Part shown: positions 1 through 25,023 of the stretch, one piece after another
Position numbering within the stretch: the stretch's first letter is position 1
Layout: every line of letters starts with the position of its first letter
Assembly: GCA_964551805.1 (NCBI GenBank)
Contig: CAZKEK010000001.1
Location: 1-25,023 of the forward strand
Length of the DNA stretch: 25,023 nucleotides
DNA from: an uncultured Candidatus Peribacteria bacterium
Lineage (GTDB): Bacteria; Patescibacteriota; Gracilibacteria; Absconditabacterales; Absconditicoccaceae
Direction: 5' to 3'
The notes under the pieces: generated by a model
The model's input: only the letters and a program-made list of their open reading frames with translations
What the model was told of the DNA's origin: nothing
Databases searched by the model: none
Translations under genes and position numbers: made by a program

Positions 1-81
1 GGGCGGGATTCGAACCCGCGAGACGATTTCTCGTCTGACTCGTTAGCAGTGAGCTGACTTCGACCACTCATCCACCTCACC
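1..81 (-). tRNA. tRNA-Ser(GCT), 3' end cut off by the window edge
   Basis: Minus strand reads GGTGAGG..AGTGGTCGAA (D arm), anticodon arm GCTCA-CT GCT AA-CGAGT, long variable arm AGACGA-GAAA-TCGTCT and T loop GGGTTCGAATCCC. Confidence 0.95.
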
Positions 82-10398: not shown

Positions 10399-10491
10399 GC
10401 CCAGATGTGCCAAGATTGCCAAAAAACAAAAGTGAAACGATTGGTTTTTGTTGCAAGATTGAGCAACCCGCTTTAGCGGGTATGGAATGGT
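10399..10491 (+). pseudogene. Interrupted 5' fragment of tRNA-Leu carrying a palindrome-ended insert
   Basis: GCCCAGATG (10399-10407) and ATGGAATGGT (10482-10491) are the first 19 nt of the adjacent tRNA-Leu, separated by 74 nt that end in ACCCGC-TTTA-GCGGGT. Confidence 0.6.
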
Positions 10492-10519
10492 GAATATGTA
10501 TTGTATTAAATTTGTTTAT

Positions 10520-24408: not shown

Positions 24409-24493
24409 AATTTCACTATAATCTTCGTTTCTAAAAACAGAGAATTTGTTTGATATAGTTGTGAAGTTAGTATTATTTAATAGAATAAAATCT

Positions 24494-24587
24494 TGGGTGA
24501 TACAGGACTGAACCCCGCAAGTCTGCGGGGCGTGCCTGTGACCTCTTGCACGTCACCCCGATGTATCGGGGCTAGCCAACTGAGCTA
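24494..24587 (-). pseudogene. Broken copy of tRNA-Val(GAC) with two palindromic replacements
   Basis: Blocks TGGGTGATACAGGA, CCTGTGACCTCTTGCACGTCA and CTAGCCAACTGAGCTA are identical to the intact gene, separated by segments holding CCCCGCA-AGTC-TGCGGGG and CCCCGAT-GT-ATCGGGG. Confidence 0.9.
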
Positions 24588-24620
24588 GTATGATAACAAT
24601 AAATCTTATAGTATTTTTAC

Positions 24621-24697
24621 TGGTGGGTGATACAGGATTCGAACCTGTGACCTCTTGCACGTCAAGCAAACGCTCTAGCCAACTGAGCTAATCACCC
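24621..24697 (-). tRNA. tRNA-Val(GAC)
   Basis: GGGTGATTAGCTCAGTTGGCTAGAGCG-TTTGC TT GAC GT GCAAG-AGGTCACAGGTTCGAATCCTGTATCACCCACCA; CCA encoded. Confidence 0.98.
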
Positions 24698-24737
24698 ATA
24701 GAACAATAACTTTACAAAAAGCTCCGAATGTAATGAG

Positions 24738-24779
24738 CCCCGTCTTTAGCGGGGTAGCCAACTGAGCTAATCACCCATA
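24738..24779 (-). pseudogene. 5' fragment of tRNA-Val fused to a palindrome
   Basis: TAGCCAACTGAGCTAATCACCCATA (24755-24779) is identical to 24676-24700 and directly preceded by CCCCG-TCTTTAG-CGGGG. Confidence 0.88.
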
Positions 24780-24787
24780 ACCATATT

Positions 24788-24859
24788 TGACCCGACCAGG
24801 AGTCGAACCTGGGTTACAACCTTCGCAGGGTTGTGTCTTATCCACTAAACGACCGGATC
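24788..24859 (-). tRNA. tRNA-Arg(GCG)
   Basis: GATCCGG/TCGGGTC acceptor, D loop AGTGGATA (A20), CAACC-CT GCG AA-GGTTG anticodon arm, CCAGG-TTCGACT-CCTGG T arm, discriminator A; CCA not encoded. Confidence 0.93.
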
Positions 24860-24865
24860 ATAAAA

Positions 24866-25023
24866 CTAATATACTTTTTACTATTTTATTAACAACGTAA
24901 TATCGTTAACCTAGGTTACCCCGCACTTCTGCGGGCTGTCTTATCCATTAAACGACGAGATTATAAATCTAATATACTTTTTACTATTTTATTAACAACG
25001 TAATATCGTTAACCTAGGTTACC
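24866..25023. repeat. Tandem repeat with 103-bp period; exact 55-bp blocks at 24866-24920 and 24969-25023, running off the window
   Basis: CTAATATACTTTTTACTATTTTATTAACAACGTAATATCGTTAACCTAGGTTACC occurs twice. Confidence 0.95.
24908..24963 (-). pseudogene. Partial copy of tRNA-Arg(GCG) with the anticodon arm replaced by a palindrome
   Basis: AACCTAGGTTAC ~ AACCTGGGTTAC and TGTCTTATCCATTAAACGAC ~ TGTCTTATCCACTAAACGAC flank CCCGCA-CTTC-TGCGGG in place of AACCTTCGCAGGGTTG. Confidence 0.85.

Follow-up and report, generated by a model that had tools for sequence, protein, structure and literature searches.

Two described systems of GIY-YIG nucleases come closest to the locus reported here. SegB of phages T4 and T6 is a free-standing GIY-YIG homing endonuclease encoded in a transfer RNA (tRNA) gene cluster (PMC2330249; PMC13096335); it cleaves within tRNA genes, at a motif complementary to the T-loop sequence, drives the recombination-dependent tandem amplification of tRNA segments, and has homologs that are statistically associated with tRNAs (PMC13096335). 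The Ssn enzymes are single-domain GIY-YIG proteins that cut single-stranded DNA (ssDNA) beside the hairpin repeats by which their genes are flanked (Chenal et al., 2025; PMC11893778); the text of that paper contains no mention of tRNA. The DNA analyzed here, referred to as the window, comprises the first 25,023 bases of the 46.5-kb scaffold C1 (CAZKEK010000001.1) in assembly GCA_964551805.1 of an uncultured Candidatus Peribacteria bacterium, and it is followed by a 100-N gap (C1:25024-25123). Close to its end, an intact tRNA-Val(GAC) gene is flanked by broken copies of itself, in which short GC-rich hairpins replace or interrupt tRNA arms. We propose that these hairpin-bearing copies, as well as those of tRNA-Arg(GCG) and tRNA-Leu(CAA), are probably the footprints, without an open reading frame (ORF), of elements that combine a GIY-YIG nuclease gene with hairpins and are nested at tRNA genes.

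The likeness to SegB lies in the presence of a GIY-YIG gene among tRNA genes, accompanied here by tandem partial duplicates that break in the T, D, and anticodon loops. In contrast to SegB, the proteins found here are 70-100 amino acids (aa) long and consist of the catalytic domain only, without a DNA-binding domain; the elements are chromosomal in a small-genome bacterium rather than carried by a phage; and GC-rich palindromes replacing arms in duplicated tRNA pieces have not been reported for SegB. With the Ssn system they share small single-domain GIY-YIG genes bracketed by GC-rich hairpin repeats of 20-50 nucleotides (nt), ORF-less repeat copies scattered in the genome, and CCCG..CGGG cores that resemble the NTS core. 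However, the hairpins described here do not carry the oriented HGTCWY flank, and in the copies examined they are embedded at arm positions of partial tRNA copies.

Other GC-rich palindromes are known from organelles, such as the GC clusters of the AT-rich yeast mitochondrial genome (PMC4478555) and the repetitive hairpin elements of sponges (PMC2800124). Like these, the palindromes found here are short, GC-rich, scattered in an AT-rich genome (32% GC), polymorphic between close relatives, and sometimes located beside tRNA genes or inside genes. In Neurospora mitochondria, the PstI palindromes flank tRNA genes. However, the organelle palindromes have not been reported to replace the arms of duplicated tRNAs or to travel with a GIY-YIG gene, and the resemblance is one of style. 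In REP/RAYT systems, the palindromes are dispersed but also flank a single-copy gene, whose enzyme is thought to mobilize them in trans, whereas the CCCG hairpins studied here track GIY-YIG genes and not the Y1 transposase gene of the genome. The literature searched describes no case of a small GIY-YIG gene that nests at a bacterial tRNA gene together with palindrome-substituted tRNA copies, and only the SegB, Ssn, and organelle analogues were found. The opinion expressed in an initial annotation of the window, that no described system has this layout, still stands within that literature.

Hairpin-bearing partial copies of tRNA-Val(GAC)

The tRNA-Val(GAC) gene was compared by BLAST with the whole assembly (1.15 Mb, 207 contigs), in which reading frames stay open only if TGA is translated as glycine (code 25). 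ARAGORN and Rfam call an intact gene, BLAST places self-copies on both sides of it, and the broken copies with their hairpins are confirmed as real (Table 1). Three tRNA blocks were recovered at 100% identity, namely positions 1-22 at 24776-24755 (E-value 3.9e-6), 34-54 at 24555-24535 (1.5e-5), and 8-23 at 24587-24572 (0.015), in agreement with the initial annotation, which described the retained blocks as unmutated. A fourth block, comprising the 3' T-stem strand and the acceptor strand (24494-24506), was read directly from the sequence.

The downstream copy carries two palindromes. One of them stands for tRNA positions 24-33, that is the 3' strand of the D stem and the 5' strand of the anticodon stem, and is predicted to fold into a hairpin as ssDNA. 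Its core reappears in a tRNA-Ile copy of the same genome (C121:3143), and the shorter form CCGATACATCGG is found in a tRNA-Tyr copy of another species. The other palindrome belongs to the segment replacing the T loop, initially given as 27 nt and measured here at 28 nt. On the opposite side of the gene, the upstream unit contains a 25-nt exact repeat (tRNA positions 1-22 plus three upstream bases) fused to a hairpin, as correctly described before, and its spacer holds a remnant of the 3' strand of the D stem. The partial copies lie 36-80 nt away from the intact gene; each of them misses one acceptor strand and cannot form a cloverleaf with a paired acceptor stem, and neither copy is called as a tRNA by ARAGORN or by Rfam at the gathering score.

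Table 1. Coordinates of the tRNA genes, partial copies, hairpins, and transposase gene; positions refer to the window unless a contig is named.
Feature	Coordinates	Strand	Evidence
tRNA-Val(GAC), intact, parent of the partial copies	24621..24697	-	ARAGORN; Rfam RF00005, 70.2 bits
Downstream partial copy, tRNA-Val positions 8-74, without 5' acceptor strand, blocks 100% identical	24494..24587	-	BLAST and sequence reading
28-nt substitute for the 7-nt T loop: CACG + 18-nt palindrome (24513-24530) + TTCAGT	24507..24534		Sequence reading
16-nt perfect palindrome, core CCCGATACATCGGG on the tRNA-sense strand	24556..24571		Hairpin search
79-nt upstream unit: tRNA-Val 1-22 (24755-24776) + hairpin (24738-24754) + spacer	24702..24780	-	BLAST, sequence
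17-nt hairpin, CCGCTAAAGCGG-like family	24738..24754		Hairpin search
tRNA-Arg(GCG), intact, upstream neighbor, same orientation as tRNA-Val	24787..24860	-	ARAGORN, Rfam
tRNA-Arg 5' half-copies, tandem units of ~103 nt	24866..25023	-	BLAST, sequence
Split 5' copy of tRNA-Leu(CAA), upstream, with hairpin 10466-10481 of the CTTTAG/CTAAAG family	10399..10518	+	Hairpin search
IS200/RAYT-like Y1 transposase gene, single	C36:1568-1918	+	PF01797, E-value 8e-23

The junctions between these pieces are spanned by independent Logan contigs. A contig of run X1, which is possibly the source sample, covers 24468-24895 and a contig of run X2 covers 24720-24895, both with 0 differences. Run X3 belongs to an unrelated study of a microbial mat, and in its contig position 24701 is fused to 24781, so that exactly the 79-nt upstream unit is absent, and the flanks differ from the window at 0-1 positions. 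Thus, the structure of the tRNA-Val locus is real and is polymorphic between very close strains. The contigs of all three runs, which come from freshwater and mat samples, also cover 24866-24998 of the neighboring tRNA-Arg array.

Three other accounts of the pieces were rejected. Split, permuted, or intron-bearing functional tRNAs, suggested by the location of the hairpins in loops, do not fit the presence of intact genes and of pieces with differing self-complementary palindromes; intrinsic terminators do not fit the hairpins within the copies, which are not followed by T-runs; and snap-back (fold-back) repair does not fit as the source of the palindromes, whose arms are not copies of the adjacent tRNA sequence. 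At two other places in the genome (C69:229 and C207:360), CCCCGCA-N4-TGCGGGG hairpins are followed by T-runs.

Recurrence at other tRNA loci and in congeners

Adjacent partial self-copies with 100%-identical blocks accompany at least 6 of the 14 tRNAs assembled for the genome, i.e., Val-GAC, Arg-GCG, Cys-GCA, Ser-GGA, Ile-GAT, and Arg-TCG, and a partial copy was also found at tRNA-Leu(CAA). For example, the half-copies of tRNA-Arg(GCG) carry a 16-nt palindrome (24920-24935) in place of the 17-nt anticodon arm; their array meets the 100-N gap at the end of the window and continues beyond it, with a further copy that has an extra hairpin in the D loop. An ortholog of these half-copies in G019 bears another hairpin. 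In the tRNA-Cys copy, an 18-nt palindrome is swapped for exactly 18 nt, and the hairpin of the tRNA-Leu(CAA) copy belongs to the same sequence family as the hairpin of the upstream tRNA-Val unit. The count of palindromes near tRNAs, proposed as a check in the initial annotation, gave 10 of 90 CCCG..CGGG hairpins within 300 nt of the 14 tRNAs against 0.58 expected (~17-fold; binomial p 4.6e-10).

The positions at which copies break off are not scattered. We scored 71 identity blocks from 31 loci of this and related genomes and found that block ends peak at tRNA positions 26 (17 blocks) and 21 (7 blocks), while block starts peak at 44 and 56-60. As these peaks coincide with arm boundaries, the arms are exchanged whole, most often the anticodon arm (27-43). 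The substituted palindromes are drawn from a small repertoire; for instance, the core CCGCTAAAGCGG occurs at seven copy sites in four genomes, involving five tRNA types.

Comparison across the genus, also called for by the initial annotation, revealed that the Arg-Val tRNA pair is kept and that homologous structures are present in at least eight other species. In seven species, the upstream tRNA-Val fragment has a hairpin at the same place with a different but still perfectly paired sequence; five species have no such fragment. Orthologs of the 79-nt unit that differ in their hairpins were recorded in six congeners. Genomes G010 and G012 possess downstream copies with the same T-loop module as the copy in the window, and the module of the G012 tRNA-Val copy shows a compensatory change of a C-G stem pair to T-A. 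The same module, CNCG + hairpin + TTCA[G/C]T, is also found in copies of tRNA-Met and tRNA-Val(TAC) within a large tRNA cluster of 2-3 species. Therefore, the central idea of the initial annotation, of a process that both duplicates segments of tRNAs and inserts palindromes related to each other, is borne out at other tRNA loci and in relatives; the agents that it put forward fit less well, and it is partly supported as a whole.

In G012 (locus L007), the hairpin-bearing copy downstream of tRNA-Val(GAC) derives from tRNA-Val(TAC) and not from the adjacent gene, and it is followed by another short 3' fragment that has a different palindrome and a terminator of its own. Copies or modules are thus exchanged among paralogous tRNA loci. 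In G009 (locus L006), a gatA-like ORF contains, close to its 3' end, an in-frame 16-nt GC-rich palindrome, CCCCGACGGATCGGGG. G020 (locus L012) has a palindrome at the same site with one mismatch, and the other congeners do not have it. Both palindromes are located ~150-250 nt upstream of tRNA-Arg(GCG) and imply that such sequences can enter coding regions too.

Small GIY-YIG nuclease genes at tRNA loci

The gene that tracks these structures, which was not considered in the initial annotation, belongs to a distinct clade of small single-domain GIY-YIG nucleases. ORFs of 70-100 aa with the GIY-YIG catalytic domain alone are repeatedly located between a hairpin-bearing copy and the intact tRNA gene. 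In the genome studied, contig C130 encodes an 80-aa GIY-YIG protein (PF01541, E-value 2e-10) between a two-hairpin copy of tRNA-Arg(TCG) and the intact gene. Downstream of these lies another copy with a hairpin, the third at this locus, together with the duplicated terminator, and the hairpins are of the same families as those at the tRNA-Val locus. In the congener G022, an 85-aa GIY-YIG ORF (PF01541, E-value 1.5e-17) sits at tRNA-Val(GAC) itself, between two copies with a palindrome for an anticodon arm and the intact gene. In another case, a GIY-YIG ORF of G020 (L057) occurs at tRNA-Leu(CAA), at the position that matches the tRNA-Leu copy of the window. The nuclease ORF is always co-oriented with the tRNA and often ends at a TAG within the D-loop sequence GGT(T)AGAGC, and the next stem-loop, natural or palindromic, then falls at the position of the anticodon arm.

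When the 40 best-scoring GIY-YIG loci in the genus were taken regardless of context, 10 of them showed this layout. Among the best 30 loci of the class, about nine are adjacent to tRNAs and one (L091) has the full layout; it belongs to another family, where the layout thus recurs with the same palindrome type as in relatives of its genus. The sites are patchily occupied among close relatives. At tRNA-Val(GAC), the ORF is present in G022, an ORF-less relic in seven species, and nothing in five; at tRNA-Leu(TAG), G020 and G022 have an ORF and G009 an empty site. The tRNA-Val locus of the window contributes an ORF-less case that combines an indel at the strain level with a congener having the ORF at the same tRNA.

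In the maximum-likelihood tree of 86 nuclease ORFs, of which some were chosen for their tRNA adjacency, this trait requires 6 changes, compared with 25.1 in shuffles (0 of 500 as low). The tRNA-adjacent ORFs are concentrated in three well-supported clades, and every tRNA-adjacent ORF of the genus that was sampled without such bias belongs to the same clades. Moreover, hairpin families track nuclease subclades; for example, CCTGCC..GGCAGG accompanies a Leu-associated subclade in two families. Hairpin repeats also flank nuclease genes of the tRNA-associated clades at other loci, in the manner of the Ssn type. The catalytic domain covers these ORFs from end to end, leaving no separate C-terminal DNA-binding domain, and their match to TIGR01453 extends over the first ~40 positions only and is below the cut-off. 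The nearest solved structures, two UPF0213 proteins of unknown function, were uninformative. A second GIY-YIG match in the genome, on C42, was discarded, as it reads as UvrC rather than as a small nuclease.

To compare the hairpins with the Ssn system, the published SRM pattern, consisting of the oriented HGTCWY flank and a semi-palindrome, was run over the genome as a regular expression. It has 15 matches against ~1 expected, including 4 exact matches to the 28-nt Neisseria NTS consensus, and none of the 15 falls within C1:24400-25300; the matches are ATTCCCGC..GCGGGAAT repeats located elsewhere in the genome. In the congeners, ACGTC-ATTCCCGN..NCGGGAAT hairpins enclose the 94-aa ORFs of another clade, and ORF-less pairs of these hairpins are scattered through the genome studied here. 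By their sequences, these NTS-type hairpins and the 94-aa clade would represent the Ssn system, as already described. The NTS-flanked SsnA-like ORFs form a clade of 26 ORFs (support 100/99), and the tRNA-associated ORFs fall outside a group (99/94) that encloses it. Since the SRM pattern fails at the tRNA-Val locus and the tRNA-associated nucleases are outside the SsnA-like clade in this tree, we regard Ssn as a mechanistic analogue rather than as the family of these elements.

Sites of the NTS type include C1:43518-43545 (beyond the window), C3:10121-10148, C66:1491-1518, C121:1104-1131, and C123:3269-3296, and they often take the form of units of two hairpins that lack an ORF and are accompanied by arrays of partial ends. 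Among the assembled contigs of this genome there is no SsnA-like ORF, whereas congeners hold one between such hairpins. In G020 (L013, flipped ~1990-2260), a degraded GIY-YIG frame lies between tRNA-Glu(TTC) and a full-length copy of it, whose anticodon stem is a TCCCG/CGGGA palindrome with the loop still TTC and which ARAGORN calls as a tRNA. In G041 (L069, 1548-1980), five tandem units at ~104-nt spacing, each with GTCCGG-tga(a/g)-CCGGAC, adjoin a tRNA cluster with a GIY-YIG ORF at tRNA-Tyr.

Proposed element and alternative explanations

In the reading we prefer, a full element would consist of a gene for a 70-100 aa GIY-YIG nuclease, co-oriented with the tRNA, the intact tRNA gene, and one or two partial copies in which one tRNA arm, mostly the anticodon arm, has been traded for a short GC-rich palindrome of a limited repertoire. 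The nuclease would nick or cut DNA at tRNA genes or palindromes, probably as ssDNA in the manner of the Ssn enzymes, and through repair of the breaks by recombination, tandem partial duplicates would arise and be lost again, as is known for SegB in phage T6. For their part, the palindromes may represent cognate cis-sites of the nuclease that travel with the element and are copied between loci. At the tRNA-Val locus, either the nuclease would have been lost or it would be supplied in trans by the C130 gene or by copies missing from the assembly; taken together, SegB and Ssn make an ORF-less footprint that is served in trans or orphaned the most economical reading. What was observed is the layout and its recurrence, the link between nuclease clades and tRNAs, the breakpoints at arm boundaries, the patchy occurrence among congeners, and the indel at the tRNA-Val locus; the cutting and its strandedness, the mobility, and the role of the palindromes are inferred.

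Several observations weigh against this proposal. Neither the window nor the tRNA-Val locus contains a nuclease ORF, and the link to the nuclease is drawn there by analogy with other loci and with G022; just one small GIY-YIG gene was assembled in the whole genome. The tRNA-Met, tRNA-Val(TAC), and downstream tRNA-Val(GAC) copies are ORF-less in every species examined and hence may never have held an ORF. The intact and presumably cleavable tRNA that always accompanies the ORF is awkward for a simple model of homing plus immunity. Finally, the distance from Ssn counts here as well, both in the hairpins, which fall outside the published SRM search pattern, and in the nuclease clades.

A more far-reaching form of the proposal can be offered only tentatively and is rather doubtful. 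According to it, a clade of minimal GIY-YIG enzymes recognizes single-stranded tRNA genes and cuts them, and thereby causes both its own spread and segmental tRNA duplication, with the GC-rich palindromes, copied from locus to locus, as cognate or immune sites. Elements of this kind would form a class of selfish DNA, widespread and so far undescribed, that parasitizes tRNA genes without destroying them. Recognition could involve the conserved D-arm sequence and the adjacent stem-loop, just as Ssn reads the NTS flank and hairpin.

The nuclease would play no part if the hairpins were autonomous mini-palindromic mobile sequences, similar to GC clusters or to REP-like sequences moved by RAYT, that pile up in dispensable DNA including decaying tandem tRNA duplicates and are unlinked to GIY-YIG genes. 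The same cores are indeed shared by many unrelated sites, the gatA-like ORF of two congeners contains an in-frame hairpin, several hairpin-bearing copies are ORF-less in all species seen, and the genome has one Y1 transposase gene. However, arms are replaced at fixed tRNA positions and often length for length, in contrast to random insertion; the hairpin type tracks the nuclease subclade; and the sister clade, that of the SsnA-like ORFs, has hairpins of its own on both sides, a pairing published as cognate. The Y1 gene has different repeats, three ~65-nt copies before it and its own hairpin repeats after it, none of them related to the CCCG hairpins, and the cores of these repeats have 2-9 occurrences that are mostly at C36 and almost confined to the surroundings of the gene. 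RAYT/REP mobilization, the leading candidate of the initial annotation, was rejected on this ground, and we consider autonomous palindromes unlikely in general. Slightly less plausible still is that the copies are functional tRNA-like RNAs, for instance leaders or trailers acting as processing or termination signals, as stabilizers of the tRNA operon or of the nuclease mRNA, or as decoys for tRNA-targeting enzymes, with GC-rich hairpins that keep the fold and abolish decoding. In favor of a function in RNA, the copies and the ORFs all point in the direction of the tRNAs, the architecture of the 5' tRNA-Val leader is kept in seven species with perfect pairing of changing hairpin sequences, one hairpin of G010 pairs only via G.U on the sense strand, and both the leader and the Arg half-copy are matched at ~90-95% identity by contigs from the metatranscriptome of a relative, for which carry-over of DNA is possible. 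On the other hand, most copies miss one acceptor strand, which precludes a tRNA-like fold; imperfect hairpins contain 16 G.U against 24 A.C pairs, that is no sense-strand excess, as expected of DNA palindromes; no T-run follows the hairpins in the copies; and a near-identical strain does without the 79-nt leader, which folds no better than shuffled sequences (z -0.98). The decoy idea of the initial annotation finds no support in view of the unpaired acceptor strands and the absence of a G.U-over-A.C bias.

Two further explanations are far less probable. Integrases commonly target the anticodon and T loops of tRNA genes and leave duplicated 3' parts of tRNAs behind, and two tyrosine-recombinase genes are present in the genome; the fragments could accordingly be scars of repeated integration and excision of integrase elements at tRNA att sites, as was also suggested initially. 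However, the copies lie 36-80 nt from the gene with neither an island nor an integrase in between, 5' and 3' fragments are duplicated equally often, and PF00589 matches are confined to C19 and C37, two contigs that do not carry these loci, which makes this origin very improbable. An artefact of assembly or amplification in a fragmented metagenome-assembled genome would agree with the gap within the Arg array at the window end, with the number of contigs, and with the low count of tRNAs. This is the least credible of all the explanations, given the exact matches of two runs to the junctions, the clean 79-nt indel in a third study, and the homologous structures in independently assembled species.

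If the link to the nuclease holds, a compact nuclease-plus-palindrome element reshapes tRNA loci in small-genome bacteria, which would account for assembly breaks at tRNA loci and for pseudo-tRNAs with odd hairpins that confuse annotation. It would also give a new target and host range to SegB-driven tRNA amplification and to hairpin-specific ssDNA nucleases of the Ssn type, and enzymes of 80 aa with a possibly programmable specificity for hairpins or tRNA shapes would have practical value for the development of ssDNA tools. Should the link fail, the swaps of hairpins at exact tRNA-arm boundaries are still an unexplained and testable regularity.

The number of assembled tRNAs is 14-15 in this genome, compared with 17-47 in the congeners, and the repeats formed by hairpins and copies probably break assemblies and hide tRNA genes. 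The tRNA loci on C121 and C56 likewise end contigs or abut gaps. At the other end of the window, Rfam detects a tRNA truncated by the window start (1-81, minus strand, 33.8 bits), with a GCGGG/CCCGC T arm at 3-19.

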